Positions 441 through 48,498 of a stretch of DNA of 48,498 nt are shown piece by piece. The stretch's first letter is position 1, and the number at the start of each line of letters is the position of its first letter. The stretch is from Bacteroidia bacterium. Lineage in GTDB: Bacteria > Bacteroidota > Bacteroidia > J057 > RFSG01. The notes beneath the pieces were generated by a model that was not told the DNA's origin, did not search any database, and saw only the letters and a list, made by a program, of their open reading frames with translations. The translations under genes and the position numbers were made by a program. The stretch is taken from assembly GCA_040381555.1 (NCBI GenBank), contig JBEIHC010000003.1:1-48498 (forward strand). The letters run 5' to 3'.

Positions 441-510
441 CTTGATATTTATCAGTTTTCTTGCCTGCCCTCCTCTGTTTCCGTAACTTTGGTTTTTAAC
501 ACCAAAGATT

Positions 511-897: not shown

Positions 898-901
898 ACA
901 A

Positions 902-1807
902 ATGGAATTTACTGGTTCAATTGACAGAGTATTAGCTGGGGTAAAAGATCCATTTACTCAAGATTCTTTCTATCATTTTGTGCTGTCCACAGCTGAACTT
1001 ACAGGGGCAAAGACTGTCCATTTTTTACATGTGGTGGATGACCTGACCAAGCTCTCTGGAATTGCAGAACCGGGTCATTCTCTATTTGAAACTTTCTTGG
1101 CAAATTTTGAAAAGCAGGTTAGGACTATAGCTTCTCAGTTTCCAAATATAGAAGTGCATTGCGAAGTTCGGGAAGGGGAGGTGGATGAGCTAATGCTTCA
1201 CTGGGTTCGTGTACAAAACATCAATTTATTGGTTTTGGGTCGCCATTCCGGTAAGTTGAAATCTGGGTCTCGCAGTATCAAGGCAACACGCATGGCTCCC
1301 TGTCATGTACTATTGGTACCAGAGCAGGCAGAATGGAAGCCCATCACTTCAGTATTGCTTCCGGTTGATTTTTCAGATTACTCTGAGTTGGGTCTGAAAG
1401 CAGTAGTGAGAATTCACAGCTTGAAAGAGATTACCTGTTTGAATATGTATCAGGTTCCAGATGGATATTACTACTCGGGGGCAAATGAGTTGGAGGCAGA
1501 GGCAAGAATGCTTAAGAATGCCAAAGAGGCATGGGACAGGTTTAAAAAGATTTTACCTGAATCAGCTCCTCCTGTGGTTCCGGCTTTTGTGTTGAAGAAG
1601 GCTTCTTTTGCCGATGATATTCAGGCCTACACCCAAACTAAATCTTTTGACCTAGTGGTGATAGGTTCTAAAGGCCTTACTGGTTCAGTTGGATTTATGC
1701 TGGGTAGCGTCAGTCAGGAATTTATCCGAGAGTTTAATTCTTTACCCGTTTTGATTATCAAAAAACGAGCAGAACGCCTCAGTCTGATTGAAGCACTTAT
1801 TTCCTAA
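902..1807 (+). CDS. universal stress protein, tandem UspA domains
   Basis: 301 aa with two Usp-like halves. The second ends with the typical VVIGSKGLTGSVGFMLGSVSQEFIREFNSLPVLIIK ATP-binding-like motif; the first has LLVLGRHSG...APCHVLLVP. Confidence 0.75.
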   Translation: MEFTGSIDRVLAGVKDPFTQDSFYHFVLSTAELTGAKTVHFLHVVDDLTKLSGIAEPGHSLFETFLANFEKQVRTIASQFPNIEVHCEVREGEVDELMLHWVRVQNINLLVLGRHSGKLKSGSRSIKATRMAPCHVLLVPEQAEWKPITSVLLPVDFSDYSELGLKAVVRIHSLKEITCLNMYQVPDGYYYSGANELEAEARMLKNAKEAWDRFKKILPESAPPVVPAFVLKKASFADDIQAYTQTKSFDLVVIGSKGLTGSVGFMLGSVSQEFIREFNSLPVLIIKKRAERLSLIEALIS

Positions 1808-30823: not shown

Positions 30824-31006
30824 AGCGCAAATGAAAAAATGCTCTAATTTGGCTTGTAAAGGGGTTTTTGTTTTCAAGTATGCTGTTGGGGTGAATTTTG
30901 GGGTGGCTGTTTAGGAGTGAGTAGTTCCTGTTTCGGGAAAATAAGTTTGTAGAATAATTGTAATTCCGTTAATTTCGGACTCGGTGTATTCAATTTACCA
31001 ATCATA

Positions 31007-32554: not shown

Positions 32555-32588
32555 TTTCTTCTTTCACCAAAAAATAAAACGAGGCTGA

Positions 32589-35500
32589 ATGAAGCATCTC
32601 ACACGATATTTACTATTCCTGCTTTTCTCCTGGAGTGGATTGATTTGGGCTCAAGCCCCATCCGTTACTGTACTTACTCCTAATGGGGGAGAGGTATGGT
32701 CTGGGGCTACTACCCAAAATATTACTTGGTCTAGTGTGAATATTTCCAATGTAGTTATTGAGTATTCTACCAATAACGGCACCAATTGGATTAACATTGC
32801 TACTTGGCCGGCATCCGCCCAAACTTATGCCTGGGTAGTTCCAGGTGCAGGACCATTGGGTTCCAACCTGTGTTTGGTTCGGATTTACGATGCCCTCAAT
32901 ACAGCGGTTGTCGATCAAAGCAATAATACTTTTACGATTCCTCCTTCCTCTATTACCTTATTACAACCCAATGGAGGGGAGCAATGGCCAGTAGGAAGTC
33001 TCCAATCGATCGTATGGACGCATAGCTCTATTCTGAATATTGATATTGAATATTCTACCAATAATGGCACGAACTGGACCAGTATAGCCACCAATATTCC
33101 GGCTTTAAGGGGTTTCCATAATTGGACGATTCCAGCAACCGTAAGCAGCAATTGTATTGTACGAGTCAAAGATGCTGTGAATCCTTTGACGGTGAATGAT
33201 GTCAGTAATTCTACTTTTTCCATTATTGCTGCCCTAACAATAGATCTGGTTAAATATAGGGGCGGTAGCTTTGACGGGTTTACTTTTTGTCAAAATGCAG
33301 CACCCGCAGTCACAGTACTCACTCCCAATGGTGGAGAAGTTTGGCCGGGTGCCACCACCCAGAATATTACTTGGTCTTATACCAATATTCCGAATAATGT
33401 ACTCATTGAGGTGAGTTATAATAATGGCTCCAATTGGACCACTCTTACCACTTGGCCAGCGTCGGCTCAGACTTTTCCTTGGGTAGTTTCCGGAATTGGA
33501 TCTACTACTTGTTTGGTTCGGGTTAGTGATGCTCAAAATTCTACCATTAATGATGTTAGTAATGCGAATTTCACGATTCCGACAGCGACTATTTCTGTGG
33601 TTCAAGCCAATGGTGGGGAGCAATGGTCTGTTGGTAGCCTTCAGTCTATCGTCTGGAATTCTCAAAGTGTGAATAATGTCAATATAGATTATTCCACCAA
33701 TAATGGTACTTCCTGGGTTTCTGTTGCCACCAATCAAACCGCCCAAAGAGGATTCTTTAACTGGACAATCCCTGCTACTGTTAGTGCCAATTGTTTGGTT
33801 CGGGTGACTGATGCCAGCAATCCTTTAGTAACAGATAATAGTGATGCGGTATTTTCTATAATTGCAGCTCTTACGGTTGATGTGGTTAAGTATAGAGGAG
33901 GGAGTTTTGATGGCTTTACTATTTGTTCAAATCAGACCCCCGCTATTACCGTTCTTACGCCCAATGGGGGAGAAATCTGGTCAGGGGCAACTACTCAAAA
34001 TATCACTTGGTCCTACACGAATATCAGTAATAATGTTCTGATTGAGTATAGTACCAACAATGGCTCCAGTTGGAACACCATTACCACTTGGCCGGTTACT
34101 GCCCGGACCTATCCTTGGATGGTTCCTGGAGCGGGTCCTTTGGGCAGTACTCAGTGTTTGGTGAGAGTCAGTGATGCTCAAAATACTCTTGTTACCGATC
34201 AAAGTAATGCCACCTTTACCATTCCCGGTTCTTCGGTTACTGTTATTCAACCCAATGGGGGAGAGCAATGGCAAGTGGGGAGTTTGCAATCCATTGTATG
34301 GAATGTGCAATCTGTTTTGACGGTTAATATTGAGTACAGTACCAATAACGGTTCAAATTGGATAAGTATCGCTACGAATTTTAACTCTTCCATTGGATTT
34401 TATAATTGGATAGTACCCGCCACCATCAGTAGTAATTGTATTGTCCGGGTTTCTGATTTCGCCAATACGACTACAGTTAATGATATTAGTAATGCCGTAT
34501 TCTCCATTATTGGGGCATCAACGGTGGATGTAAATAAATATAGAGGAGGAGGGTACGATGGGTTTACCTCCTGTTATACCGGTTGTGTGCCGCCAACAGC
34601 GTCTATGTCTGGCACTCAAACAATCTGTACAGGTAGTTCCGCCAATTTATCGATTAATTTTACCGGTTCTGGTCCTTATGTAATTACTTATACCAATGGC
34701 ACAACTCCTGTTACCCAATCTGGAATTACAGCCAATCCTTTTGTGATTAGTGTTACCCCTACGGTTACTACCTCTTATTCTTTAACAGCCTTAAGTAATA
34801 CTTGTGTAAGCGGTCCTATTTCTGGGTCTGCTTTAGTTACCCTTACTTCAGGGCCAACCGCTACTTTAACTGGAAACCAAACTATTTGCTCAGGGGCTTC
34901 TGTTACCCTGACAGTTGCTTTGGGTGGCGCTTCTCCTTGGACGGTTGTTTGGACAGACGGCACCACTCCCATTACTCAAACAGGTATTACCGGTTCTCCT
35001 TTGTTAATCTCTCAAACTCCTGCCTCTTCGAGAACTTATTCTTTAGTCAGTGTGAGCTCTCCTTCCTGTACAGGGGGATTGGCAACAGGTACCGCTGCCA
35101 TACAGGTAAACGCTCCACCTGTAGTAGCGCTCAGTGGGGGAAATACCATTTGCTCTGGCAATACAGGAACGCTCACCTTTACGCTTAGCGGGAATTCTCC
35201 TTGGGATATTGTTTGGACAGATGGGACTTCTAACTTTACTCAACTCGGGGTAACTTCCAGTCCATTTTTGACAACAGTCACGCTAAGCCAAAGCATTACC
35301 TATTCCCCTGTTTCGGTCATCAATGTTTGTGGTAGTGGAACTGTAAATGGGAATGCCCCATTTGTATTAAATGCTGCTCCAGTAGCCACTCTAACAGGGA
35401 CTCAGACTATTTGCGTTGGAGGCACTGCTGTTTTATCTGTTGGAATCACAGGTATTGCTCCTTGGAGTTTATCGTGGACAGATGGCACTACTCCTCAGAC

Positions 35501-38500
35501 TCAGACGGGAATAACCAGTTCGCCTTATTTTATGGTCGTAACCCCTGGCAGTCAAACTACCTATTCCTTAGTCAGTGTCAGTAGTATTTGCAGTGGAACA
35601 GTTTCCGGTACGGCCATCGTTACCCCTCAGTCTGGTCCTACTGCCACTTTGAGTGGCACACAGACGGTATGTGGAATTGGAACTGCTCAATTGAGTGTCG
35701 CATTAACTGGCTCTGCACCTTGGTCTCTAACCTGGACGAATGGCACTACCCCTGTAACTCAAACCGGAATTACCGGTAGTCCATTTTTATTTACTGTAAC
35801 GCCTACCCAAACTACCACTTATAGTTTAACCGTTGTAAGTACTTCAGGTTGTCCTTCTGGTGTACTTTCTGGAGGGGCAGTTGTGAGCGTTTTTTCTATT
35901 CCTACAGCTAGCTTGAGTGGCACTCAGACGGTTTGTTCCGGAGTATCTGCTAATTTAACTATAAGCTTAACGGGAACTTCCCCCTATCAAATTGTTTGGA
36001 CAAATGGTACGACTCCCCAAACGCTAACAGGGATTACCGGAAGTTCTTATACTTTTTCCGTTACGCCTATTTCCAATACAACCTATTCTTTAGTTTCAAT
36101 TCAGAATAGTTGCACCGGTACAGTTTCCGGGCAAGCAATAGTAACATTGGCAACCTCACCCACTGCAACCCTGAGTGGAACGCAGACGATTTGTGGTGTC
36201 GGATCAGCTAGCTTATCTATTGCATTTACCGGAACAGGTCCCTGGAATGTAAGTTACACCGATGGTACTACTCCCAATGCGGTAAATGGTTTGACCAGTT
36301 CACCCTATGTGTTTTCAGTAACGCCAAGCAGTTCGGTTACCTTTACCCTTTTATCTGTTGCCAATCCTTATTGTAGCAGTGGCTTAGTTTCCGGACAAGC
36401 AATTGTTAGTCATTCCTCAGTACCTACCGCAAGTATTAGCGGAACCCAAAGCATTTGTTCCGGACAATCCGCATCACTGACTGTGAGCTTATCTGGAATT
36501 GCCCCCTGGAATTTAACTTGGACAGATGGTACCAACCCTCAGTCACAAACTGGCATAACAAGTTCCCCCTTTATTGTATCTGTTACTCCAATCAGTACAA
36601 GTACTTATAATTTACTATCAGTGCAGAATATTTGCACTGGTACAGTATCTGGACAAGCTCCTGTTGCTGTGTTATCCCCGGCTTCAGCAACCCTTACCGG
36701 ATCCCAAACAATATGTGGGTCTGGTGCGGCTAGTTTGACAATCACCTTCTCTGGGGCAGGCCCTTGGAATGTAAGCTGGACAAATGGAACAACACTTGCT
36801 AGTCAGAATGGAATTACGGCCTCCCCTTATGTATTTACGGTCACACCAACTGGTTTAACAACCTATAGTTTGGTATCTGTTACTAATCCATTTTGTAGTA
36901 TTGGTTCAGTATCGGGTACAGCATTAGTGAACCAGATGCCTTTGCCTACTGCGACAATCAGTGGCACTCAAAGTCTGTGTGCAGGTCAGTCAGCCCTGAT
37001 CACGGTTAATTTAACAGGCAGCGCTCCCTGGAACTTTACCTGGACAGATGGTACCAATGCGAACACTGTATTGGCAACTACAGCCTCAGTGCATGTGCTA
37101 TCTGTAACACCTGCATCCACAAGAACTTATACAGTCAGCTCAGTTTCGGATGCTTGTGGACTGGGCACTCAATCAGGCAATGCTGCCATTACGGTTACTC
37201 TTTTACCTACTGCAAGCATTTCAGGTACGCAAACGATTTGTATCGGAAGTGGAGCAACTCTCTCTGCAACTTTAACTGGATCCAGCCCTTGGTCTTTAAC
37301 CTGGACAGATGGGGTTAGCCCGGTAATGGTTACAGGAATTACTAGTACTCCTTATACCTGGTCTATCAGCCCCGCGGTTCAAACATCCTACACATTAACC
37401 AATGTAAGTAATGGTTGTGCTGGCTCAGTTTCTGGAATCGCCCTAGTAAGACCGATTGCCGTACCAACGGCTACATTAAGTGGAAATCAAACTGTCTGCC
37501 CCATTCAGGCTGCTCAATTAAGTGTGGCATTAACAGGCGTTCAACCATGGACAATCACCTGGACAAATGGTACAACCCCAATAACTGTAACTGGAATCAA
37601 TACCAGCCCTTATACTTTTTCTGTAACCAGCATGAGCAGTAGGACCTACACCTTAACTCAAGTCGGCTCACAGGGATGCAGTCCTGGCACTGTTTCTGGT
37701 AATGCAGTGGTTAGTATTCAACCTATGCCGACAGCTGCCTTGTCTGGAGCTGGGTCTATTTGCGCCGGACAAACTTTTCAGTTTTCGGTTGCTTTAACAG
37801 GTAGTTCGCCTTGGACTTTCTCCTATACAGATGGAACCAATACGAATTCGATTATAAATACCACCATGACTCCCTACTGGGTGAGTGTTACCCCTTCCAC
37901 TACGCGTACTTATTCTTTGGTTTCTTTGAATAATGCCTGTGGTTCAGGCACAGTCAGCGGAACGGCAAGTGTGCAGGTAACTCAGGTTGTGTCTGCGACG
38001 CTTTCTGGATCTCAAACAATTTGTAATGGGAATAGTGGCAATATCAGCGCCAGCTTAGTGGGCAATGCTCCCTGGAATCTTACCTGGACGGATGGGGTAA
38101 ATTCATTCCCTGTAAGTGGAATTACTTCCAGTCCTTTTGTCTTTTCTGTTTCCCCTACAGCAACTACCACTTTCGTAGTACTGAATGTGAATGCTGGAGG
38201 TTGCGTTGGCTCTGCATTTGGCAGTCATGTTGTATCGGTGATACCCGGTCCAACCTTGAATGTGAGTGGAGGTCAGAATGTATGTTCAGGCGTTGGGGTT
38301 CAAATGAATTTTAGTATGACAGGAAATCCTCCTTGGAACATCACCTTTACCAATGGAACTAATACCTTCACTCAAACTGGATTAACAAGCAGTCCCTATA
38401 TTTTTAATTTTACGCCATCCGCTTCCGTTACCTATACGCCTATTTCAGTGAGTAATGCTTGTGGTGCAGGAAGTGTGAGTGGAAATGCGATTTATCAGGT

Positions 38501-40553
38501 TACCCCTTTAACGACCGCTAGTATTTCAGGAAGTCAATCTATTTGTCCAGGAGGTTCTGCTACTTTGAGTGTAAACTTTACTGGGAGTGGTCCTTGGAGT
38601 TTTATTTATTCAAATGGATTTAGTAATACCTCCGTGAGCACTGTAACCGCTTCTCCATGGACTGTAACGGTTACCCCTTCTATCTCCACAACTTATACAT
38701 TGGTGAGTTTGATCTCCAATGGATGTGCTGGGGCTATATCGGGGAGTGCAGTAGTTTCGCTCACTCCTACAGCCAATGCCAGTATCAGTGGATCTCACAC
38801 AATTTGTGCTGGAGCCAGTGCCCTACTTACGGTTAATTTAAGTGGAGTAGGACCTTGGAATTTAACTTGGACGGATGGGACGAACTTTACCTCCCAGACA
38901 GGTATTTCTACTTCGCCATACTTGTTTTCTGTCAGTCCGGTAAATTCTACCACTTATAGTTTAAGCAATTTAGTTTCTCAAGGTTGTACAGGATCTGTTT
39001 CGGGCTCAGGAGTGGTTACGCTTCAATCTGGTCCTACAGCCTCCATTAGTGGCAATCAAACCATTTGTATAGGAGATAGCGCTCAAGTCAGCATTCAACT
39101 GACAGGTACTGGGCCTTGGGATATTACCTGGATGCAAGGAAGTTCGACTTTAACTCAGACCGGATTAACCAATTCTCCTTGGGTTATTTCAGTTACCCCA
39201 TCTGTTGCCACAACCTACAAAGTAACCTCTGTTTCTGCCCCTGGTTGTAGTACAGGTACTATCAGCGGAAGTGGTCAGGTGGTTGTTCAGTTGGCTCCGA
39301 TTCCTTCTCCGGCTGTGGTTCAATCAAATCAGTCAATCTGCAGTACCTCTTCTTTGGTGGTTGCCAATACCCCCACTTCCGGAACGGGAGTATGGACAGT
39401 TACAGCTGGTACTTCTACGGTTTTAAATCCAGGAAATGCCACTAGTTCTGTGGTAAGTTTGAGTCAGGGTTTGAATCGCTTTATCTGGACCGTTACCTTA
39501 GGAGCATGTTCCTCTTCCGATCAATTAGATATCTATCGAGAAATACCTCCTGCACCTTCTAATGCAGGACCTTCTCAAGTTATTTGTGGCAGCACAGCAA
39601 CTCTTGCTGGAAATACTCCAACCAATAATGCCACTGGTACTTGGTCTATTGTGAGTGGATCCTGCATTATTACCAATCCGAATTCCTTAAACTCTTCAGT
39701 AACCAATATCGCACCTGGGCAAACGGTGTTGCGTTGGACAATCAGCAATGGTGTTTGCCCCTCTACGCAGGATACTTTGACAATTGTTTCTGCATTAGGA
39801 GTAACTCAAGCCAATGCAGGAGCAGATCAAACCATTTGTATTGGCTCTGCCAACTTGAACGCGAATATGGCTAATCCAGGTCAGGGATTTTGGACGGTTG
39901 TTTCAGGTTCGGGAGTTGTAAGTAATTCCATTTCTAACTCCACTCAATTAACGGGAATAACAGTCGGTACAACCGTATTAGCTTGGACTTTGACCAACGC
40001 TGGATGTATTTCCTCAGATACAATGAGGATAAATAGAATTAGTGCCCCATTGGCCAACTTTACCTATACTCAAGCAGGGAGTTTATTCTCCTTTACCGAT
40101 TTATCACAGAATCCGGTTTCTTGGTTCTGGACATTTGGAGATGGGAATAATAGCAATCAGCAAAATCCCCAGCATACCTATCAGCAGTCAGGGATGTACA
40201 CAGTTACTTTAATTGTGGCCAATGGATGTGGGAGTGATACGGCGGTTTATCAGGTCAATAATTGGGGGGTAAGTACTAGTGTTGATTTAGACCTCTCAGA
40301 TTTAATGGAGATCTGGCCAAATCCATCAAGTGGCAGGACCAGCATATACATAAAAAATGCTGCTTATCAAGACCTAGATTTGAGAGTTTATGACATGCTT
40401 GGCCATTTAGTCATGGTAAATGGCAAGAAGAATTTAACTCCGAATGGTTTACAATGGGACTTAAATTTATCTGATTTAAGTACTGGAGTCTATCAAATAC
40501 GAGTTTCAGGCTCTGGAATGCAGGGTATTGGCAAGCTTTTGCTGGTGAAATAA
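32589..40553 (+). CDS. giant secreted repeat protein 2 (2654 aa), T9SS cargo
   Basis: Domain order:
- Signal peptide (LFSWSGLIWAQA).
- 3 x [A unit VTVLTPNGGE.W.GATTQNITWS..IEYSTNNG..W; B unit QPNGGEQW.VGSLQSIVW...YSTNNG..W...NC.VRV.D; closing KYRGG(S/G)(F/Y)DGFT.C].
- 18 x 87-aa two-Cys modules.
- 3 x ~80-aa modules (Q.IC.......G.W.(V/I).(S/A)G......N......(V/L)......(F/L/V).(W)T(V/I/L).....C).
- A PKD-like segment (WFWTFGDGNNS...PQHTYQQSGMYTVTLIVANG).
- A T9SS CTD (IWPNPSSGRTSIYIKN...GVYQIRVSG...LLLVK). Confidence 0.93.
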   Translation: MKHLTRYLLFLLFSWSGLIWAQAPSVTVLTPNGGEVWSGATTQNITWSSVNISNVVIEYSTNNGTNWINIATWPASAQTYAWVVPGAGPLGSNLCLVRIYDALNTAVVDQSNNTFTIPPSSITLLQPNGGEQWPVGSLQSIVWTHSSILNIDIEYSTNNGTNWTSIATNIPALRGFHNWTIPATVSSNCIVRVKDAVNPLTVNDVSNSTFSIIAALTIDLVKYRGGSFDGFTFCQNAAPAVTVLTPNGGEVWPGATTQNITWSYTNIPNNVLIEVSYNNGSNWTTLTTWPASAQTFPWVVSGIGSTTCLVRVSDAQNSTINDVSNANFTIPTATISVVQANGGEQWSVGSLQSIVWNSQSVNNVNIDYSTNNGTSWVSVATNQTAQRGFFNWTIPATVSANCLVRVTDASNPLVTDNSDAVFSIIAALTVDVVKYRGGSFDGFTICSNQTPAITVLTPNGGEIWSGATTQNITWSYTNISNNVLIEYSTNNGSSWNTITTWPVTARTYPWMVPGAGPLGSTQCLVRVSDAQNTLVTDQSNATFTIPGSSVTVIQPNGGEQWQVGSLQSIVWNVQSVLTVNIEYSTNNGSNWISIATNFNSSIGFYNWIVPATISSNCIVRVSDFANTTTVNDISNAVFSIIGASTVDVNKYRGGGYDGFTSCYTGCVPPTASMSGTQTICTGSSANLSINFTGSGPYVITYTNGTTPVTQSGITANPFVISVTPTVTTSYSLTALSNTCVSGPISGSALVTLTSGPTATLTGNQTICSGASVTLTVALGGASPWTVVWTDGTTPITQTGITGSPLLISQTPASSRTYSLVSVSSPSCTGGLATGTAAIQVNAPPVVALSGGNTICSGNTGTLTFTLSGNSPWDIVWTDGTSNFTQLGVTSSPFLTTVTLSQSITYSPVSVINVCGSGTVNGNAPFVLNAAPVATLTGTQTICVGGTAVLSVGITGIAPWSLSWTDGTTPQTQTGITSSPYFMVVTPGSQTTYSLVSVSSICSGTVSGTAIVTPQSGPTATLSGTQTVCGIGTAQLSVALTGSAPWSLTWTNGTTPVTQTGITGSPFLFTVTPTQTTTYSLTVVSTSGCPSGVLSGGAVVSVFSIPTASLSGTQTVCSGVSANLTISLTGTSPYQIVWTNGTTPQTLTGITGSSYTFSVTPISNTTYSLVSIQNSCTGTVSGQAIVTLATSPTATLSGTQTICGVGSASLSIAFTGTGPWNVSYTDGTTPNAVNGLTSSPYVFSVTPSSSVTFTLLSVANPYCSSGLVSGQAIVSHSSVPTASISGTQSICSGQSASLTVSLSGIAPWNLTWTDGTNPQSQTGITSSPFIVSVTPISTSTYNLLSVQNICTGTVSGQAPVAVLSPASATLTGSQTICGSGAASLTITFSGAGPWNVSWTNGTTLASQNGITASPYVFTVTPTGLTTYSLVSVTNPFCSIGSVSGTALVNQMPLPTATISGTQSLCAGQSALITVNLTGSAPWNFTWTDGTNANTVLATTASVHVLSVTPASTRTYTVSSVSDACGLGTQSGNAAITVTLLPTASISGTQTICIGSGATLSATLTGSSPWSLTWTDGVSPVMVTGITSTPYTWSISPAVQTSYTLTNVSNGCAGSVSGIALVRPIAVPTATLSGNQTVCPIQAAQLSVALTGVQPWTITWTNGTTPITVTGINTSPYTFSVTSMSSRTYTLTQVGSQGCSPGTVSGNAVVSIQPMPTAALSGAGSICAGQTFQFSVALTGSSPWTFSYTDGTNTNSIINTTMTPYWVSVTPSTTRTYSLVSLNNACGSGTVSGTASVQVTQVVSATLSGSQTICNGNSGNISASLVGNAPWNLTWTDGVNSFPVSGITSSPFVFSVSPTATTTFVVLNVNAGGCVGSAFGSHVVSVIPGPTLNVSGGQNVCSGVGVQMNFSMTGNPPWNITFTNGTNTFTQTGLTSSPYIFNFTPSASVTYTPISVSNACGAGSVSGNAIYQVTPLTTASISGSQSICPGGSATLSVNFTGSGPWSFIYSNGFSNTSVSTVTASPWTVTVTPSISTTYTLVSLISNGCAGAISGSAVVSLTPTANASISGSHTICAGASALLTVNLSGVGPWNLTWTDGTNFTSQTGISTSPYLFSVSPVNSTTYSLSNLVSQGCTGSVSGSGVVTLQSGPTASISGNQTICIGDSAQVSIQLTGTGPWDITWMQGSSTLTQTGLTNSPWVISVTPSVATTYKVTSVSAPGCSTGTISGSGQVVVQLAPIPSPAVVQSNQSICSTSSLVVANTPTSGTGVWTVTAGTSTVLNPGNATSSVVSLSQGLNRFIWTVTLGACSSSDQLDIYREIPPAPSNAGPSQVICGSTATLAGNTPTNNATGTWSIVSGSCIITNPNSLNSSVTNIAPGQTVLRWTISNGVCPSTQDTLTIVSALGVTQANAGADQTICIGSANLNANMANPGQGFWTVVSGSGVVSNSISNSTQLTGITVGTTVLAWTLTNAGCISSDTMRINRISAPLANFTYTQAGSLFSFTDLSQNPVSWFWTFGDGNNSNQQNPQHTYQQSGMYTVTLIVANGCGSDTAVYQVNNWGVSTSVDLDLSDLMEIWPNPSSGRTSIYIKNAAYQDLDLRVYDMLGHLVMVNGKKNLTPNGLQWDLNLSDLSTGVYQIRVSGSGMQGIGKLLLVK
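32664..34585 (+). repeat. 3 tandem ~640-bp coding repeats (A-B unit pairs) in giant protein 2
   Basis: Unit starts are at 32664, 33309 and 33945 (VTVLTPNGGE / ITVLTPNGGE). Each ends with KYRGGxxDGF. Confidence 0.9.
34591..39299 (+). repeat. 18 tandem ~261-bp (87-aa) coding repeats in giant protein 2
   Basis: I counted 18 occurrences of G..P(W/Y)...(W/Y/F)(T/S/M)(D/N/Q)G, each preceded by (T/N/S)Q(T/S/N)(I/V/L)C.G and followed by a second Cys about 60 aa later. Confidence 0.9.
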
Positions 40554-40711
40554 GCACTTTTCCACTAATAAATTAGTAAGATCTTGGTCGTAAAAGGCTT
40601 TGATTACAGCCCTTTGTGTTTTCCATAGATTATTTCTCCACAAATATTTGTAATTGTAATATATTGTGGTCATATTTGAAATCTAATTTAATAACGAAAA
40701 ACAATAATTTT

Positions 40712-42439
40712 ATGAAAACTGTTTCTCAATTTCTGTTTGGTGTCCTATTGTTGGCACTTGGTTTTAGCGCAAATGCGAATAACCTGACCATTACCAATGT
40801 TTCGTTGACGGGAGCAACTTCTACCACGATTCAGGTACAATACAATATGTTTTGGGATAATTCCTGGAGAGATTTGGAGAATTGGGATGCAGCTTGGGTT
40901 TTTGTGAAGTATTCTACCAATGCGGGATTAAATTGGGCTCATGCCACTTTAAGTACAACTGGGCATGTAAGTGGTACAGCAACTCCAAGTGCGACAGTTC
41001 AAATTCCACAAGACAACATGGGTGCATTTATATATCGTTCTGCTACAGGTAGCGGGACTTACACCATTACAAGCCAGCAATTGCAATGGAACTTCACGGC
41101 CAATGGTTTAAACCAAACTCAAGCTTCCGGTGCTACTATTCGGGTATTCGGAATGGAGATGGTGTATATTCCACAAGGGGAGTATTATTTGGGGGATGGG
41201 GTGAATTATTCTACCACGCCAACCCCTACGGCAAGTGCGTTTACTAGGTCTAATACCAATAGTAGTGCTGGTTTTATCCCTCCTAATATTTCAGAGACTT
41301 TAAATGACCCCTTTTACGGAGACTTTAGGATTAATGGATTGCTTGGTGTAGATTTAAATAATGATACAGTTGTATCTACTTGGCCGACAGATGCACCAAG
41401 TTTTCCAACTGGATATAAAGCATTTTATTGCATGAAATACAAAGTTACGCAAGGACAATACACGGATTTTTTAAATACGCTTACCTACGATCAGCAATCA
41501 CAAAGGGTCAATAATGCGAATAATACTGCAAATGCTAGTATTTGGGATGGGTCCACAACTGCACTTCCGTCTCATCGTAATAATATATTTGTATTAACCC
41601 CTGGCATTAGTAATACTCAGCCACGCGTTTATACAGCAACTCGTCCGGATCGTGAATGTAATTACATAAACTGGCCTGATGCGGCTGCCTACCTTGACTG
41701 GGCATCTTTAAGACCATATACTGAATTTGAAAAAGAGAAAATTGGAAGAGGTCCAGTTCCTCCTGTTCAGGGAGAAGTAGCTAATGGGACAACATCTTTT
41801 ACAGCTCTGGTTGGTATAACATCGGGTGTTGAAAATGGTACAGAAATAGCAACGAATACAACTCAAAATTTATACAATGTTAGTCAGGAGTATTATCCAA
41901 CTGGCGGGGATAATGGCAATTTTTACAGAGCTCCAATTCGCTCCGGAATCTTCAGCACAAGTTCTTCAACCAGGGTTCAATCTGGTTCAACTTATTATGG
42001 CGTTAAAGATTATGGAAGTGGGTTAATAGAGTGGCAAGTTAGTTTTGCAACACTTGCAGGTCGTTCATTCACAGGACTACATGGAAATGGGGTATTAAAT
42101 TCAAGTGCACAGGCAGATGTAAATTTTTGGCCTGGCGTTAATGGCAATGCTACGACAGGCACTGCCAATGCTACCTATGCAGGCACGACTGGTGTGAATA
42201 CTGGAGCCGGTATCACCTTCACTGGGTTTATGAATTATAATGCTGCTATATATTCCGCAGTATGGGGGCCTTGGCTTGGTACTAGTTATCATAACAATTC
42301 CTATCCTTATTTTATTTCTGCTAGGATGAATCCTGGATACTTGAATGTGAGTACAATTTCTACCTCAACAGGACGACAAACCTCCTACACAACCCGTTAT
42401 CAAACGATGGGTTTCCGTGGTGTAAAATCCAATCTTTAA
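40712..42439 (+). CDS. secreted FGE-sulfatase-fold (SUMF1/GldJ/GldK-like) protein, partner 2 (paralogue of 31007-32554)
   Basis: Start chosen at ATG 40712 (MKTVSQFLFGVLLLALGFSANA). The N-terminal domain is near-collinear with partner 1 (NLTITNVSLTGATSTTIQVQYNMFWDNSWRDLENWDAAWVFVKY...). FGE landmarks are MVYIPQGEYYLGDG, FYCMKYKVTQGQYTDFLN, RPDRECNYINWPDAAAYLDWASLRPYTEFEKEKIGRGP, YYGVKDYGSGLIEW and MGFRGV. Confidence 0.75.
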   Translation: MKTVSQFLFGVLLLALGFSANANNLTITNVSLTGATSTTIQVQYNMFWDNSWRDLENWDAAWVFVKYSTNAGLNWAHATLSTTGHVSGTATPSATVQIPQDNMGAFIYRSATGSGTYTITSQQLQWNFTANGLNQTQASGATIRVFGMEMVYIPQGEYYLGDGVNYSTTPTPTASAFTRSNTNSSAGFIPPNISETLNDPFYGDFRINGLLGVDLNNDTVVSTWPTDAPSFPTGYKAFYCMKYKVTQGQYTDFLNTLTYDQQSQRVNNANNTANASIWDGSTTALPSHRNNIFVLTPGISNTQPRVYTATRPDRECNYINWPDAAAYLDWASLRPYTEFEKEKIGRGPVPPVQGEVANGTTSFTALVGITSGVENGTEIATNTTQNLYNVSQEYYPTGGDNGNFYRAPIRSGIFSTSSSTRVQSGSTYYGVKDYGSGLIEWQVSFATLAGRSFTGLHGNGVLNSSAQADVNFWPGVNGNATTGTANATYAGTTGVNTGAGITFTGFMNYNAAIYSAVWGPWLGTSYHNNSYPYFISARMNPGYLNVSTISTSTGRQTSYTTRYQTMGFRGVKSNL

Positions 42440-42459
42440 TCTTTTAACCCATCCCGGTT

Positions 42460-45400
42460 ATGAATATACTCCTCAACAAAGCGAGGGAGGGAATCCGGGT
42501 TGCATGGGCGATGTTGGTTTTTATTTTGCTGTGTTCTTCTCAGCAGGTAATAGGCCAATCCGTTACTGTCACCAGCCCGAATACAAATGTCATTTGGCAA
42601 AGTGCCACCAGTCAAAATATTACCTGGACTGGAGCAGGTATTTCTAATGTACGAATCGAATATTCGATCAACAATGGTTCTACCTGGATATTAATTGGCA
42701 CCCAATCCTTAACGACATTTACCTACCCATGGACCATCCCTCAAATTCAGGGTGGTTCAACCTTTTGTCTCATTCGCATTAGTGATGCCATCAATCCACT
42801 TACTTTTGATGTATCTAATGTGACTTTTACAATTCCGCCTTCTGTCGTCCTCGATTATCCTAATGGCGGAGAAACACTATATGGCAGTTCGGTGCGAGGC
42901 ATAAGATGGACGCACGACCCCAGTGTATCGAATGTACGACTTGAATATAGTTCGGATAATGGTTCTAATTGGAATTCAATCGTTACTACTGTTAGAGCAT
43001 TACAAAAGTTCTATGCCTGGACGGTTCCTTCTTTGTCTTCTTCTAATGTATTGATAAGGGCAAGTAACGCTGCCAACACAACGATAAATGATATTAGTAA
43101 CCAACCTTTTACAATATCAAACAGTGTCTTAGCAGACCCGGTTCGATATCGGGGAGGAGGCTATGATGGCTATTCTATGCGTTCAAACCTTGTTCCTGCC
43201 GTAACGGTTACTTCTCCTAATACAAATGTGTTTTGGCAGGCGAATACAACCCAGGCCATTACTTGGACTTCCTCCAATGTGGACAATATTCTTATTGAGT
43301 ATTCCACCAATAGCGGCAGTTCCTGGACAACCATTACAACTTCGCCTGCTTCAACCGGGTATTTTAATTGGAATGTTCCTCAGATACCAGGCGGTTCTAC
43401 ACAGTGTCTGATTCGGATGACAGATATTCTAAATGGAGCAGTAACGGATCAGAGTGATGTGACTTTTACCATTCCTCCTTCTATCATTGTCGAGTATCCT
43501 AATGGAGGAGAAAATCTATATTCCGGAACAGTCAGAGGTATAAGATGGATCCATGATCCCAGCGTTACAAATGTTTTGCTGGAATATAGTTCGGACAATG
43601 GCTCGAGTTGGAATACGATTGTATCTTCTGTAAGAGCTTTACAGAAATTCTATGCTTGGACTCTTCCAGGATTAAACTCTTCGAATGTACTTGTGAGGGC
43701 CAGTAATGCTACTAATACTGGAATCAATGACATTAGTAATTCAGTATTTACCATCAATAATTCTGCTTTAGTGGATCCTGTTCGGTATCGCGGCGGAAAT
43801 TATGATGGCTACACAATGCGGTCGAATCTGATTCCCTCTGTTACGGTGACTTCACCTAACACCAATGTGTTTTGGCAGGCGAATACGACTCAGGCCATTA
43901 CCTGGACATCATCAAATATTGATAATGTGCTACTTGAATATTCAACTAATAATGGATCAGCATGGACTACCATTTTGACAACCTCTGCTAGTACAGGCTA
44001 TCATAATTGGAGTGTGCCCCAGATTCCCGGTGGTTCGACCTTGTGTCTGATCCGGATTACGGATGCCTTGAATTCTGTGGTTACGGATATGTCAGATGTA
44101 ACTTTTACAATTCCTCCCTCTATTATTCTGGATTATCCCAATGGAGGGGAACTCTTATACGGAGGTTCTATTCGGGGAATTCGATGGACACATGATCCTA
44201 GTGTCTCCAATGTATTATTGGAATACAGCACGAATAATGGATCCAGTTGGACCACAATTGTTTCGTCAGTAAGAGCTCTGCAGAAATTTTATGCCTGGAC
44301 CATTCCATCAATAGCTTCAAACAGTGTATTGGTTAGGGCAAGTAATGCAAGCAATTCAGGTATTAACGATATTAGTGATGCTGCTTTCTCAATTAGTTCA
44401 ACAACCCTTGTAGATCCCGTTCGCTATAGAGGGGGAAGTTATGACGGGTATGCCATGCGGGAAAATTCCTCTTCTATCGTTACCCTTACGAGTCCGGTCA
44501 CCAATCTGACCTGGCTTAGTAATACTAATGAAAATATCACCTGGACTTCCGCGAATGTGGTGAATGTGATGCTGGAATTCTCCTCTAATAATGGTTCCTC
44601 TTGGACAATCATTGCCAATTCACTTGCTGCGGGATCCGGCTCTTTTACTTGGAATGTGGTCCAGATTTCTGGAGGTTCAACGCAATGTCTGATTAGAATT
44701 TCAGATACCTCAGATCCTTCTATCTTTAGCATTAGTCCGGTTACATTTACGATACCTCCACCCATTACAATTGAATATCCCAATGGCGGTGAAACGCTTT
44801 ATGCAGGCAGTGTTCGTGGTATTCGTTGGATACACGATCCAAGTGTTTCGAATGTACTACTAGAATATAGTGCGGATAATGGCTCCACCTGGAGTACGAT
44901 AGTTTCTTCTGTTCGTGCCTTGCAAAAGTTTTATGCCTGGACAGTTCCCGCTTTAGCTTCTTCCTCTGTTTTGGTGCGCGCCAGCAATGCGTCTAATACC
45001 ACAATAAATGATGTAAGTAATACAGCCTTTACCATTCAGAACTCAGCTCTGGTGGATCCGGTTCGGTATCGTGGGGGAAGTTTTGACGGATATGCGATGC
45101 GAGAGAATACGCTTTCTCTGGTTACCCTGACGAGTCCTGTAACTGCAGTTACCTGGCAAAGTAATACGAATCAAAACATCACCTGGAATTCAACAAATGT
45201 GGTGAATGTGATGATTGAGTTTTCTTCTAACAATGGGTCGAGTTGGAGTACAATTGCACCTTCTCTTGCTGCCGGATCCGGGAGTTTCACCTGGAATGTC
45301 GTGCAGATATCAGGAGGTTCAACTCAGTGTTTAATCCGTGTATCCGATACTTCAGATCCCTCCGTTTTCAGTGTGAGTTCTGTGAATTTTATTATCCCTC

Positions 45401-48400
45401 CCCCCATTACGATTGAATACCCCAATGGTGGAGAGACGCTTTATGCAGGAACCGTAAGAGGAATTCGATGGATTCACGATCCCAGTGTGTCTAATGTTTT
45501 ATTGGAATATACCACAAATAATGGGTCTTCGTGGAATACGATTGTTTCATCTGTTCGTGCATTACAAAAATTTTATGCATGGACCATTCCTTCTATTAAT
45601 TCGGCTTCAGTCATCGTTCGGGCAAGTAATGCAGCCAATACTTCAATAAATGATGTTTCGGATGCTGTATTTACAGTTTCTACTTCAAGTTTTGTAGATC
45701 CGATTCGTTATCGTGGTGGTGGGTATGATGGATATACGATGAGATCCAATGCTCAGCCCTTTATTACCGTTAATAGCCCAAATACCAATGTGTTTTGGCA
45801 AGCGAGTACTACTCAAACCATCACTTGGAGTTCAGGAGATGTGGATAATGTAATTCTGGAGTATTCTACTGACAATGGTAGCAGCTGGAATAACATCATT
45901 ACAACCTCTGCTAGTACTGGATACCATAATTGGTTTGTTCCCCAAATCCCAGGTGGTTCAACCCAATGTTTGATTAAAATCACGGATGCTATTAACCCAT
46001 TGATATCCGATGTCAGTAATGTGACCTTCACCATTCCGCCTTCTATTATTTTGGAGTATCCCAATGGGGGAGAAACCTTACATGCCGGCACGGTTCGGGG
46101 AATTCGTTGGATTCATGATCCTAGTGTAGCTAATGTACTATTGGAATACAGTTCCAACAATGGTTCCAGTTGGACAACAATTGTTTCTTCTGTAAGAGCA
46201 TTACAGAAATTTTATGCATGGACTATTCCGTCTATTTCTGGTTCAGGTATTCTGGTAAGGGCAAGTAATGCCTCCAACTCAAATATCAATGATATAAGTG
46301 ATCAGAATTTTACGATTCAAAATGCTCAATTAGTCGATCCTGTGCGTTACTATGGTGGTTCTTATGATGGATATGCAAGTAATCAAACTTTTACTTGCCC
46401 AATTCCATCCGCTACCTTATCCGGAAACTACAGTCTGTGTCAGTCTGGTACTGTTTCTTTAAGCGTATTCTTTACAGGAAGTCAGCCTTGGGATATCACC
46501 TGGACGGATGGAACTAACTCGTATCCGGTGTCCAATATTACCCAAACGCCTTATATTATTGTTGTGACGCCTAGTGTTTCAACTACCTACAGTGTGGTGA
46601 GTGTAAGTAATAGCTGCGGTAGCGGTCCTGGTTATCTTCAATCAGTTGTGAGTGTCAGCTCCGCGCCTACCGCCTCTATCTCGGGTAGTGAAGCCTTATG
46701 CACCGGCCAAAGCACAACTTTAAGTTTTGTCCTGACTGGTTCTGCACCTTGGGATTTAACCTGGACAGATGGCTTATCTTCCTTTACGCAAACGGGTATT
46801 TCCGCTTCTCCTTATCTTGTTAGCCTGACGCCCGTACAAACAAGAGTTTACGCTCCGGTGGCCGTATCTTCAGGTTGCTCCGGAACAGTGTCCGGTTCAA
46901 GAACGGTAAGCGTTGGAAGTTCTCCAACTGCAGTATTGAGTGGTACTCAGGCTATGTGTCAAAGTGGCACTGCTAATCTGAGTGTAAACTTTACAGGCAA
47001 TTCGCCTTGGAATCTCACCTGGACAGATGGTGTAACTCCATCAACAATTACAGGGATTACAGCCAATCCTTTGCTACTTCCGGTTTCCCCCACGCTGCAA
47101 ACCTCTTATAGTTTAGTTTCTGTAAGTGCCGGTTGTTCGGGTACTGTCAGTGGGAATGCTGTTGTTTCAGTGCTGTCACTTCCATCGGCAACCCTTTCAG
47201 GCAATAATACGATTCTACTGGGTCAAGGAACCACGCTTACGTTTAACTTGACTGGCGCTTCTCCCTGGAGTATTCAGTATAGCAATGGTACGAGTTCTTT
47301 TTCTCAGACCGGGATTAATTCGAGTCCATTCTTTGCAAGTGTCAGTCCAACAGCAAATACAACCTATACACTTGTTTCAGTTAATAACAACGCCTGCCCC
47401 GGTGGTGTTACCGGCAGTGCGGCTATTGTTGTGAATAGTCTTCCCACTGCAGCTCTGAGTGGTGCCCACACGGTTTGTGCGGGAACGCCAGCTACGCTCA
47501 GCGTTAATCTTGGTGGCCCCGGCCCCTGGAATGTAACCTGGACAGATGGCGTCAATACGACCACTCAAAATGGTATTACCTCGACGCTCTACACTTTCAC
47601 TGTAACCCCGACCATCAGTACAACCTATAGTCTGGTGTCTGTTACCAATCCTTTGGTAGGAACAGTAAGTGGCACCGCAGTGGTTAGCGTGACTCCGATA
47701 ATGAATGTAACGCTGAGTGGCAACCAGACGATCACGCAAAATCAAGCGGGTAACCTAAACTTTGCCCTGACCGGTAATAGCCCCTGGTCTTTCAGCTACA
47801 CGGATGGGGTCAATACCATACCGGTGAGCGGTGTTATGCAAAATCCTTATGTGGTAAGCGTCACGCCTATGCAAACGACTACTTATAGCTTAGTGAGTAT
47901 GAGCAGTCCTTGCCCCGGTAGCCTGACAGGTACCGCAGTGGTGGTGGTGAATGTTCCGCCAACAGCGGTGTTGAGTGGAAGCCAAAGTCTATGTGCCGGT
48001 CAGTCTGCGGTTCTGACAGTAACGCTTGGTGGGGGCCCCGGTCCTTACACCCTAAGCTGGACAGATGGTAACAACACCAACACTCAGAATGGGATTACAG
48101 GAAGTACTTACCTGATATCGGTAACACCTTCTCAAAGTACGACCTATAGCTTAATCTCTGTAAGTAATGTTGTGCCCGGTACAGTAAGCGGTACCGCTGT
48201 TGTCAGCGTTACGCCGATAATGAATGTAACGCTGAGTGGTAACCAAACCATTACTCAAAATCAAGCGGGGAACTTAAGCTTTGCTTTGACGGGTAATAGT
48301 CCCTGGTCATTCAGCTATACCAATGGGGTCAATACCATTCCAGTAAGTGGTATCACGCAAAATCCTTTTGTTGTGAGCGTCACGCCTATGCAAACGACTA

Positions 48401-48498
48401 CTTATAGCTTAGTGAGCATGAGCAGTCCTTGCCCCGGCAGCCTGACAGGTACGGCAGTGGTGGTGGTGAATGTTCCGCCAACAGCGGTGTTGAGTGGA
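42460..48498 (+). CDS. giant secreted repeat protein 3 (more than 2013 aa, 3' partial at window edge)
   Basis: This ORF is not in the supplied track because it has no stop in the window. I translated frame 1 at three points. ATG 42460 gives MNILLNKAREGIRVAWAMLVFILLCSSQQVIGQSVTVTSPNTNVIWQ; position 43141 gives VRYRGGGYDGYSMRSN...VTVTSPNTNVFWQANTTQAITWTSSNVDNILIEYSTNSGSSW; the last codons give ...PPTAVLSG. The plus-strand ORFs listed inside are in frames 2 and 3. I did not check every codon. Confidence 0.85.
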   Translation, partial: MNILLNKAREGIRVAWAMLVFILLCSSQQVIGQSVTVTSPNTNVIWQSATSQNITWTGAGISNVRIEYSINNGSTWILIGTQSLTTFTYPWTIPQIQGGSTFCLIRISDAINPLTFDVSNVTFTIPPSVVLDYPNGGETLYGSSVRGIRWTHDPSVSNVRLEYSSDNGSNWNSIVTTVRALQKFYAWTVPSLSSSNVLIRASNAANTTINDISNQPFTISNSVLADPVRYRGGGYDGYSMRSNLVPAVTVTSPNTNVFWQANTTQAITWTSSNVDNILIEYSTNSGSSWTTITTSPASTGYFNWNVPQIPGGSTQCLIRMTDILNGAVTDQSDVTFTIPPSIIVEYPNGGENLYSGTVRGIRWIHDPSVTNVLLEYSSDNGSSWNTIVSSVRALQKFYAWTLPGLNSSNVLVRASNATNTGINDISNSVFTINNSALVDPVRYRGGNYDGYTMRSNLIPSVTVTSPNTNVFWQANTTQAITWTSSNIDNVLLEYSTNNGSAWTTILTTSASTGYHNWSVPQIPGGSTLCLIRITDALNSVVTDMSDVTFTIPPSIILDYPNGGELLYGGSIRGIRWTHDPSVSNVLLEYSTNNGSSWTTIVSSVRALQKFYAWTIPSIASNSVLVRASNASNSGINDISDAAFSISSTTLVDPVRYRGGSYDGYAMRENSSSIVTLTSPVTNLTWLSNTNENITWTSANVVNVMLEFSSNNGSSWTIIANSLAAGSGSFTWNVVQISGGSTQCLIRISDTSDPSIFSISPVTFTIPPPITIEYPNGGETLYAGSVRGIRWIHDPSVSNVLLEYSADNGSTWSTIVSSVRALQKFYAWTVPALASSSVLVRASNASNTTINDVSNTAFTIQNSALVDPVRYRGGSFDGYAMRENTLSLVTLTSPVTAVTWQSNTNQNITWNSTNVVNVMIEFSSNNGSSWSTIAPSLAAGSGSFTWNVVQISGGSTQCLIRVSDTSDPSVFSVSSVNFIIPPPITIEYPNGGETLYAGTVRGIRWIHDPSVSNVLLEYTTNNGSSWNTIVSSVRALQKFYAWTIPSINSASVIVRASNAANTSINDVSDAVFTVSTSSFVDPIRYRGGGYDGYTMRSNAQPFITVNSPNTNVFWQASTTQTITWSSGDVDNVILEYSTDNGSSWNNIITTSASTGYHNWFVPQIPGGSTQCLIKITDAINPLISDVSNVTFTIPPSIILEYPNGGETLHAGTVRGIRWIHDPSVANVLLEYSSNNGSSWTTIVSSVRALQKFYAWTIPSISGSGILVRASNASNSNINDISDQNFTIQNAQLVDPVRYYGGSYDGYASNQTFTCPIPSATLSGNYSLCQSGTVSLSVFFTGSQPWDITWTDGTNSYPVSNITQTPYIIVVTPSVSTTYSVVSVSNSCGSGPGYLQSVVSVSSAPTASISGSEALCTGQSTTLSFVLTGSAPWDLTWTDGLSSFTQTGISASPYLVSLTPVQTRVYAPVAVSSGCSGTVSGSRTVSVGSSPTAVLSGTQAMCQSGTANLSVNFTGNSPWNLTWTDGVTPSTITGITANPLLLPVSPTLQTSYSLVSVSAGCSGTVSGNAVVSVLSLPSATLSGNNTILLGQGTTLTFNLTGASPWSIQYSNGTSSFSQTGINSSPFFASVSPTANTTYTLVSVNNNACPGGVTGSAAIVVNSLPTAALSGAHTVCAGTPATLSVNLGGPGPWNVTWTDGVNTTTQNGITSTLYTFTVTPTISTTYSLVSVTNPLVGTVSGTAVVSVTPIMNVTLSGNQTITQNQAGNLNFALTGNSPWSFSYTDGVNTIPVSGVMQNPYVVSVTPMQTTTYSLVSMSSPCPGSLTGTAVVVVNVPPTAVLSGSQSLCAGQSAVLTVTLGGGPGPYTLSWTDGNNTNTQNGITGSTYLISVTPSQSTTYSLISVSNVVPGTVSGTAVVSVTPIMNVTLSGNQTITQNQAGNLSFALTGNSPWSFSYTNGVNTIPVSGITQNPFVVSVTPMQTTTYSLVSMSSPCPGSLTGTAVVVVNVPPTAVLSG
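42562..46380 (+). repeat. 6 tandem ~637-bp coding repeats (A'-B' unit pairs) in giant protein 3
   Basis: The closing R-Y-(R/Y)-G-G-x-(Y/F)-D-G-Y codons recur at about 43144, 43783, 44421, 45063, 45706 and 46346. Long stretches are clearly alignable at the DNA level between copies. Confidence 0.9.
46405..48498 (+). repeat. 8 tandem ~261-bp (87-aa) module repeats in giant protein 3; the last four form a ~519-bp two-module duplication
   Basis: P(W/Y)-x3-(W/Y)-(T/S)-(D/N)-G codons occur near 46490, 46745, 47005, 47262, 47522, 47783, 48040 and 48300. The stretch 47695-47979 aligns with 48214-48498 without gaps. Confidence 0.9.

Follow-up and report, generated by a model that had tools for sequence, protein, structure and literature searches.

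Two gene pairs in the window

We have analysed a stretch of 48,498 nt from a Bacteroidia bacterium (contig JBEIHC010000003.1 of assembly GCA_040381555.1, positions 1 to 48,498, forward strand), hereafter the window. Two of its genes encode secreted proteins with a C-terminal half related to the formylglycine-generating enzyme (FGE), and each stands directly upstream of a gene for a giant protein; we call the two proteins partner 1 and partner 2 (P1 and P2) and the giants that follow them G2 and G3. All genes of the window described here lie on the forward strand. P1 (31007..32554, 515 aa) is separated by 34 nt from G2 (32589..40553, 2654 aa), for which Pfam reports Ig-like and PKD domains and a type A C-terminal domain (CTD, PF18962) of the T9SS (type IX secretion system). 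P2 (40712..42439, 575 aa) is separated by 20 nt from G3 (42460..48498, >2013 aa), which runs off the end of the window. The listed open reading frame (ORF) of P2 opens at an upstream GTG at 40616; the initial annotation had assumed a start at 40712, and this start holds, as the ATG found there is followed by a typical signal peptide.

Both partners carry a Sec signal peptide (residues 1–21 of P1 and 1–22 of P2) and neither a lipobox nor a T9SS CTD. The signal peptides end in VYA and ANA, with N as the next residue in each case, and contain no Cys, so that a lipobox is absent. Behind the signal peptide stands a domain, here termed the N-domain, that occupies residues 22–145 of P1 (nt 31070–31441) and 23–148 of P2 (nt 40778–41155). 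The FGE-type fold takes up the rest, residues 146–515 of P1 (nt 31442–32551) and 149–575 of P2 (nt 41156–42436).

P1 and P2 are paralogues, judging by their BLASTP match (E 4e-125, overall identity 45%). A global alignment gives 67.7% identity in the N-domain (P2 residues 22–150) and 40.8% in the remainder, in agreement with the earlier statement that the N-terminal block is better conserved between the paralogues than the FGE half. The insertions of P2 in the FGE half, previously put at ∼90 residues, are present, but their extent was overestimated: the alignment has 65 extra residues in P2 and eight in P1. The loops of the C-terminal half are the part that varies most between the two proteins. 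Family-wide, the N-domain is only slightly better conserved, with a mean pairwise identity of 43% versus 38% for the FGE half.

Upstream of P1, an M1-peptidase-like gene (27938–30823, 961 aa) ends 183 nt before the partner gene, and a gene for a HAD phosphatase lies between it and a further giant, G1 (22399..26484, 1361 aa), which has PKD domains and a T9SS type A CTD and no partner gene upstream. In a genome of the same family (locus L016) an M1-peptidase-like gene (960 aa) keeps its place upstream of the orthologous partner-giant cassette, and the full order is retained there: M1 peptidase, partner, 2575-aa giant, partner, 2231-aa giant. The M1-peptidase-like gene may be part of the same unit. 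A promoter and terminator scan of positions 30700–42700 gave counts at the level of shuffled sequence and was uninformative.

The N-terminal domain

The initial annotation quoted a consensus block that both partners share immediately after the signal peptide, and could not assign it to a known family. The block is found as quoted, except that its tail, EMVYIPxGxFxxGD, lies outside the N-domain: solved FGEs have their first strand, MVPIPAGVFTMG, at this place of the alignment, and the limits given above for the N-domain proper follow from that alignment. As to its family, the block indeed stays unplaced. Searches against Pfam and NCBIfam returned nothing above threshold (the best matches, both below cut-off, were Big_6 with E 0.0028 and Reelin_subrepeat-B with E 0.03), and a search of the ESM Atlas returned only unnamed clusters and no Pfam family.

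With 144 residues of P2 as the query, a full HMMER search found 2034 representative clusters at E ≤ 1e-3 and 1394 at E ≤ 1e-10; a word-indexed search with the N-domain found 558 proteins. In 249 of 262 matches the domain stands just after the signal peptide, in the other 13 it is internal, and five long proteins among these matches carry it two or three times over. In the proteins found it always precedes at least 250 further residues, a part that Pfam calls FGE-sulfatase in most of the proteins checked and on which Pfam is silent in a few. Counted in this way from sequences, the N-domain is a large, conserved and undescribed family and not a local oddity. Its conserved positions are rich in Trp and Asn (in P1 numbering W47, N49, S50, W51, W61, W72 and W123).

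An AlphaFold2 model of the P2 N-domain, made from 126 aligned sequences, is all-beta with a predicted local distance difference test score (pLDDT) of 94.4. A specific structural relative was sought and rejected: Foldseek gave no PDB match at E ≤ 1e-3, and exhaustive structural alignment (VIA-align) gave only fibronectin type III (FN3)/Ig-type sandwiches with Z ≤ 7.4 over ∼85 aligned residues. Such Z values are background for FN3/Ig sandwiches, and the fold, as modelled, is generic. The AlphaFold2 model of full-length P1 reached a pLDDT of 90.1 and a predicted template modelling score of 0.91; the N-domain and the FGE half are therefore predicted to form a single rigid body.

We also considered homology of the N-domain to the ∼95-aa PNGGE...EYSTNNGSSW repeats of the giants, an idea prompted by the likeness of one hairpin (VKYSTNAGLNW in the N-domain, EYSTNNGSSW in the giants) and by the weak Reelin_subrepeat-B match. 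It was rejected, as hhalign gave a probability of 2.9% and aligned only a hairpin, over 17 columns. The repeats themselves, which have weak Reelin_subrepeat-B matches in Pfam, we take to be Kre9/KNH-like.

The FGE-type half and its cysteines

Both partners match PF03781 (FGE-sulfatase) above the cut-off of 23.3 bits (P1 with 38 bits, P2 with 30.5 bits), the match being partial and confined to the C-terminal halves. A profile of the family matches human FGE with E 6e-12. In a Foldseek search with the C-terminal half of P1 the FGEs of Thermomonospora curvata, Streptomyces coelicolor and human (SUMF1) came out on top (E 2.7e-8), so that FGE is the best match by sequence as well as by Foldseek; in structural alignment FGE, EgtB, CalU17, PvdO, pFGE, ToxD and PorK were equally close (Z ∼16–17; 16.1 for PorK), and TvpA reached 15.4. 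FGE and the partners have in common the landmarks FYxxxYEVS and WAGxRLPTE.E as well as the GFRC end. The fold of the C-terminal half is genuinely of the FGE type.

FGE binds copper through a CxxxxC pair, and in the loop that corresponds to it P1 has the pair C480-x3-C484 (32444..32458). The HMMER alignments made with profiles A1 and A5 miss or barely score this segment; a manual count from the GFRC end and from the SxR arginine would place the pair at most one or two residues from the catalytic positions of FGE. P2 has cysteines at residues 240 and 316 only and none beyond 316, which makes a C-terminal copper-binding pair impossible in this protein; in P2 and its nearest orthologues the segment with the pair is swapped for a Cys-free insertion. 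In the family alignment (104 sequences) at most four sequences have Cys at each of the two columns of the P1 pair. A C-x3/4-C pair is present in all ten P1-like orthologues (P0033–P0042) and in the short P2-like forms P0019–P0032, and is rare in the wider family (24 of 213). The residues before the pair in the Cys-bearing clade are KSEGN (as in P1) or KDDP, not RGGS. A disulfide staple would account for the loss of RGGS and the variable spacing no less well than a copper site.

These features bear on the name that the Joint Genome Institute (JGI) annotation automatically gives to identical or near-identical proteins and cluster-mates, ‘formylglycine-generating enzyme required for sulfatase activity’, according to which the partners would be classical FGEs maturing sulfatases or the giants. 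The PF03781 match, the name itself and the position of the P1 pair near the right place speak for such a role. The absence of the pair already contradicts it for P2, and the RGGS motif is lost in P1. The FGE substrate motif is missing as well: the initial annotation had found none by eye in the giants, and our computational scan for (C/S)x(P/A)xR was in accord, with zero occurrences in G1, G2, G3, P1 and P2, so that neither CxPxR nor SxPxR exists in the neighbours. Nor is there a sulfatase gene among the genes of the 98.3%-complete genome; a search with PF00884 gave a single match, which from its N-terminal sequence reads as a phosphoglycerate mutase. P1 and P2 thus belong to the FGE-sulfatase superfamily by fold and fail two defining features of the enzyme: P2 and the majority of the family lack the copper-binding CxxxxC (P1 having C-x3-C without RGGS), and, unlike the setting of an active FGE, the host genome offers no sulfatase substrates. 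Because the Cys pair is lost in P2 and in the family consensus, and neither substrate motif nor sulfatase gene was found, classical FGE activity of P1 and P2 is very unlikely, as had been suspected at the outset, and we give the classical-FGE reading next to no chance; the JGI name is probably a misnomer for the cluster-mates of P1 and P2. The initial annotation had left the catalytic status of the fold open. That is still partly so for the P1 clade, which keeps C-x3/4-C.

A second enzymatic reading is of a different kind: the partners could be enzymes of new specificity that modify the neighbouring protein at or near the motif described below, using the FGE-type groove to capture their substrate, with C-x3/4-C of the P1 clade as a redox or metal site. 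The FGE fold does serve several enzymes (FGE, EgtB, OvsA, CalU17 and ToxD), P1 orthologues conserve the Cys pair in the counterpart of the FGE copper-site loop, and the C-terminal half is rich in nearly invariant polar residues (HGDG, E352, R379 and R391 in P1 numbering). On the other hand, the pair is missing from P2 and most of the family, its spacing varies between x3 and x4, RGGS has become KSEG or KDDP precisely in the clade that has the cysteines, and a DinB-type iron domain, as in EgtB, is absent. The motif adds arguments on both sides, which we give with it.

A glycine-rich motif in the neighbouring proteins

The motif was first noticed in other genomes, as repeats of F-x-G-G-x-x-D-G-(Y/F/H) in an alignment of small proteins encoded downstream of partner genes (230–340 aa, homologous over their full length). 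In the window it lies in the linkers of both giants that follow a partner, spaced every ∼213 aa. G2 has three copies of the form KYRGG(S/G)(F/Y)DGF (33255–33281, 33891–33917 and 34539–34565; repeat family D11). G3 has six of the form RY(R/Y)GGx(Y/F)DGY (43147–43173, 43786–43812, 44425–44451, 45067–45093, 45709–45735 and 46348–46374; repeat family D19). G1 provides a contrast within the window, as it lacks a partner gene and has not a single copy of the motif. In the host genome as a whole the strict motif occurs in five of 5813 frames, with multiple copies only in G2 and G3. Neither Pfam nor NCBIfam has a name for the region.

To see the motif in its wider context we read 154 genes of the partner family in their loci; these loci are mutually related, so that the counts that follow are not independent trials and the enrichment overstates the significance. 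The strict pattern GGxxDG[YFHWA] was found in 46 of 120 downstream proteins (2.3 per 1000 aa) versus 18 of 3080 other ORFs (0.056 per 1000 aa), and most of these 18 turned out to be upstream or second-downstream neighbours of a partner gene. Position −2 lies outside the search pattern, and yet 90% of the 230 instances have Y or F there. Downstream proteins without the strict form have variants of it, among them GGxGRGD, EGSNGDGF (about ten copies), GGxGNGY and GGSGSGY. With the relaxed pattern [YF]xG[GS]xx[DRSGNA]G the count rises to 83 of 120 downstream proteins versus 37 of 2896 others, and 62 downstream versus 14 other proteins have it inside the first 90 residues. The same downstream proteins with their residues shuffled gave 4.8 (any place) and 0.7 (first 90 residues); composition therefore does not explain the enrichment. 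In 42 proteins the first motif begins at residues 19–30, straight after the signal peptide (e.g. ..AQ-Y-S-G-G-T-G-D-G-F).

Whole genomes were searched with the strict motif as a DNA pattern. In the complete 4.4-Mb genome G079, eight of ten sites lie within ∼2 kb of its two partner genes, and in G255 two of four sites lie inside the CTD protein encoded downstream of the partner. Across the loci read, the association of motif and partner recurs in different phyla and with different motif subtypes. A Rosetta-stone fusion of partner and motif in one polypeptide was not seen among 12 long family members.

For the reading of the partners as enzymes of new specificity, the tight pairing of their genes with those of motif-bearing proteins is a further point in its favour. 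The motif itself speaks against it: each of the two aromatic positions can be Y or F, and in the variants R, S, G or N takes the place of the Asp. The lack of an invariant reactive side chain favours recognition over chemistry, and we regard the new-enzyme reading as unlikely, though it deserves to be kept in mind.

Two side observations concern the shape and the chemistry of the motif. At three loci (L104, L117 and L138; Bacteroidota and Flavobacteriaceae genomes assembled from metagenomes (MAGs), and Winogradskyella) the downstream proteins, 456–472 aa long, consist of about ten near-identical ∼27-aa repeats, LYEGSNGDGF(S/D)xRLLAATTLDNTSLTV, which look like a regular solenoid built around the motif. 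In G2 a Cys follows the motif in two of the three copies (GFTFC, 33255–33290, and GFTIC, 33891–33926), and in G3 in none. The partner of G2, P1, has the Cys pair and the partner of G3, P2, does not; this is an anecdote, since two informative partners are too few for a correlation between the pair and the Cys after the motif. The pattern recalls the intermolecular disulfide between GldK and SprF.

Family occurrence and gene neighbourhoods

Of 41 genomes of the same order, 27 have members of the partner family, often more than one and in some cases as two or three tandem genes; of 301 genomes sampled across the phylum, 20 have them. Members also occur in MAGs labelled Omnitrophota, Planctomycetia, Verrucomicrobiota, Lentisphaeria and Ignavibacteria, with the caution that MAG labels can be wrong. 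The host genome (3.04 Mb) has a third paralogue on contig C50 of this genome (G000; 215–1777, minus strand; 521 aa, N-domain identity 49%). The gene downstream of it starts out with a signal peptide (MKISLFRLVPVLLTLFTGLISAQS) before the contig end truncates it, a break that would be expected had another repeat-rich giant broken the assembly there.

T9SS CTDs were scored with a hidden Markov model built from 29 Pfam-defined CTDs of the host genome. The next gene on the same strand has a CTD in 46 of 97 complete cases downstream of the partner and in 19 of 93 upstream; 46 is a lower bound, as the model was built from the host genome alone. For comparison, a CTD is found in ∼4% of host genes (an estimate from ∼103 matches) and in 10% of the remaining ORFs of the loci read first. 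A further 17 downstream genes of at least 600 aa are cut by a contig end, and in 15 cases the downstream gene is another member of the partner family. The 103 CTD matches of the host make for an unusually cargo-rich secretome for a genome of its size.

At loci L068, L069, L070 and L071 two or three tandem partner genes stand directly upstream of one giant or large protein, and tandem partners likewise occur at L083, L093, L095, L097, L110, L111, L128, L132, L142 and L149. Several of the large proteins at tandem loci have 7–13 copies of the motif inside 22–27-aa tandem repeats, with one Cys per repeat. At three loci from a family of another class in the phylum (L046, L048 and L052) the downstream gene encodes a PALP (cysteine-synthase-like) enzyme in place of a secreted protein, and the match to the N-domain falls into separate pieces; the role of this subfamily may differ.

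The neighbourhoods also bear on whether the partners bind sugars instead of proteins, as lectins of glycans or the envelope that might, for example, anchor or space surface fibres on polysaccharide, the adjacency to the motif being a matter of co-regulation. The FGE fold is a C-type-lectin-like fold, and the conserved Trp and Asn of the N-domain resemble what sugar-binding modules often show; in addition, one relative has an added Fib_succ_major domain and another a CBM9-like match just below threshold (23.0 bits, cut-off 23.4). However, the motif is almost wholly confined to proteins encoded near a partner gene, both inside single genomes and over several phyla, which would be odd under co-regulation alone, and we found no glycan-related genes that are consistently adjacent. 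We therefore consider the lectin reading distinctly improbable.

Relation to known systems

A search of the literature for FGE-fold proteins linked to T9SS cargo led only to the work on PorK/GldK and on Tsi3. PorK, GldK and GldJ are Cys-less FGE folds that act as protein binders (PMC12421860). FGE itself holds the CxPxR peptide in a surface groove, and PorK reuses the regions equivalent to this groove for docking PorN (PMC12421860). These proteins resemble the partners as Bacteroidota envelope proteins with an FGE-type fold at Z ∼16 and without the catalytic Cys pair (PMC12421860, PMC12365241, PMC12635249); in them the fold serves protein docking, as it may in P1 and P2, and they have a functional tie to T9SS cargo. 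The differences are several. P1 and P2 have a type I signal peptide and no lipobox, they carry an N-terminal FN3-like domain where PorK has internal insertions, and their family is multi-copy and locus-specific, with one gene per cargo gene, and extends outside Bacteroidota. The missing lipobox, the architecture and the wider taxonomic range set P1 and P2 apart from GldJ/GldK, to which they do not seem to belong. The initial annotation had proposed a binding or scaffolding role as in GldJ/GldK; binding is still the best reading and now has a candidate ligand motif.

The same comparison weighs on a structural alternative, in which the partners are components of the T9SS or gliding tracks (GldJ/GldK/PorK-like) or variable proteins of a diversity-generating retroelement (DGR). 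Variable proteins of DGRs often use an FGE-type fold. The structural scores for PorK and TvpA, given above, and the variability of the C-terminal loops between P1 and P2 agree with one or the other version. Besides the missing lipobox, the NCBIfam scan, whose library may or may not include GldJ/GldK models, left P1 without a match and gave P2 a weak one to EgtB. Apart from the paralogue on C50, the other FGE-fold genes of the genome are two that encode separate lipoproteins, each with lipobox and RGGSW motif; these are better candidates for GldJ/GldK than P1 and P2. The presence of the family in MAGs assigned to Planctomycetia, Verrucomicrobiota and Omnitrophota, groups not known to have a T9SS, also speaks against a part in the T9SS machinery. 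The DGR version was rejected: within the window the 3′ ends of the partner genes take part in no repeat, and a reverse transcriptase is absent from the genome (no match to PF00078). Taken as one, this alternative is very improbable.

Tsi3, an immunity protein of the T6SS (type VI secretion system), is another non-enzymatic, Cys-less FGE-like protein binder (bioRxiv 10.1101/2021.05.21.445229). It is periplasmic and binds a protein encoded by a neighbouring gene, as P1 and P2 may do. Its ligand is a T6SS effector, and it has neither an N-domain nor a repeated tag; the likeness is one of fold. In gene order the partner-giant loci recall the sprCDBF operon of Flavobacterium johnsoniae, in which the genes of the support proteins SprC and SprD stand directly upstream of that for the giant adhesin SprB, whose function is reported to depend on them (as cited in PMC5879114 and PMC12635249). 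The analogy is limited to the order, small accessory genes upstream of a giant T9SS adhesin: SprB is a type B CTD cargo with the PorP-like SprF, unlike G2 with its type A CTD.

Proposed function of the partners

We propose, at what we judge to be roughly even chances, that P1 and P2 are non-catalytic readers of a glycine-rich tag on the protein encoded by the adjacent gene, which in this genome is T9SS cargo. The reader would be a rigid two-domain unit, an FN3/Ig-like N-domain packed on an FGE-type, C-type-lectin-like fold from which the copper-binding Cys pair has gone, completely in P2 and in most of the family. It would bind the tag [YF]-x-G-G-x-x-D-G-[FYH] and its variants. As the FGE groove holds the CxPxR peptide and PorK reuses the equivalent regions, the groove of the partners is proposed as the site of tag binding, possibly extended by the rigidly attached N-domain. 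The tags would here be the linker motifs of G2 and G3, and in many other genomes the mature N-terminus of a small T9SS cargo protein. Binding may take place in the periplasm before CTD-dependent export, e.g. holding or ordering long repeat proteins, and its purpose would be to hold, escort, assemble or anchor the cognate repeat protein; the partner may also be co-exported or have a role at the surface. Physical binding, the binding site and the cellular role are what we infer from the features of the genes and models described above.

Several points weigh against this proposal, in addition to the relatedness of the loci, which inflates the enrichment. Some 30% of the downstream proteins have not even the relaxed motif, and three other complete genomes with a partner gene have zero strict-motif sites. 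The neighbours at some loci are unrelated, as with the PALP enzyme, DUF4350, a TonB receptor and an AraC-family regulator fused to a hydrolase. The P1-like Cys pair, placed at the active-site loop of FGE, would be apt for redox or metal chemistry, and the strong conservation of the polar residues HGDG, E352, R379 and R391 is compatible with catalysis too. Finally, the presumed periplasmic location of P1 and P2 has a sole basis in the signal peptide together with the absence of lipobox and CTD.

Beyond this genome, the tag-reading function proposed for P1 and P2 could extend to a widespread two-component module, a reading to which we give a little less than an even chance: a secreted reader (N-domain and Cys-less FGE fold) plus a tag, [YF]xGGxGxG or [YF]xGGxxDG[FYH], at the mature N-terminus or in the linkers or repeats of an adjacent surface protein. 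Recognition would then serve the escort, assembly, anchoring or modification of T9SS cargo and of other large repeat proteins, in a range that by MAG labels spans Bacteroidota, Ignavibacteria, Omnitrophota, Planctomycetia, Verrucomicrobiota and Lentisphaeria. In the groups that are not known to have a T9SS, the genes next to the partners again encode large repetitive proteins; the pair of reader and tag is therefore probably independent of any single secretion route.

Our literature searches for the N-domain, the motif or their pairing found no description of them. The family of 2034 representative clusters and the short motif, neither matched in the copies of Pfam and NCBIfam that were searched, are newly defined here. 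The public names on the family (‘formylglycine-generating enzyme required for sulfatase activity’ and ‘SUMF1/EgtB/PvdO family nonheme iron enzyme’) are probably wrong for most of its members. What began as a domain without a known family, probably non-catalytic, has grown into a candidate module of reader and tag. A repurposed FGE fold is of a known kind, and there is a reasonable chance that the proposed recognition system is genuinely new. To our knowledge, current understanding of how T9SS cargo is recognised is confined to the C-terminal domain. If the proposal is true, it would extend the theme of PorK/GldK and Tsi3, the repeated reuse of the FGE peptide-binding groove for protein recognition, and giant adhesin-like T9SS proteins would have a second, gene-specific layer of recognition, made up of a tag at the N-terminus or in the linkers and its FGE-fold reader.

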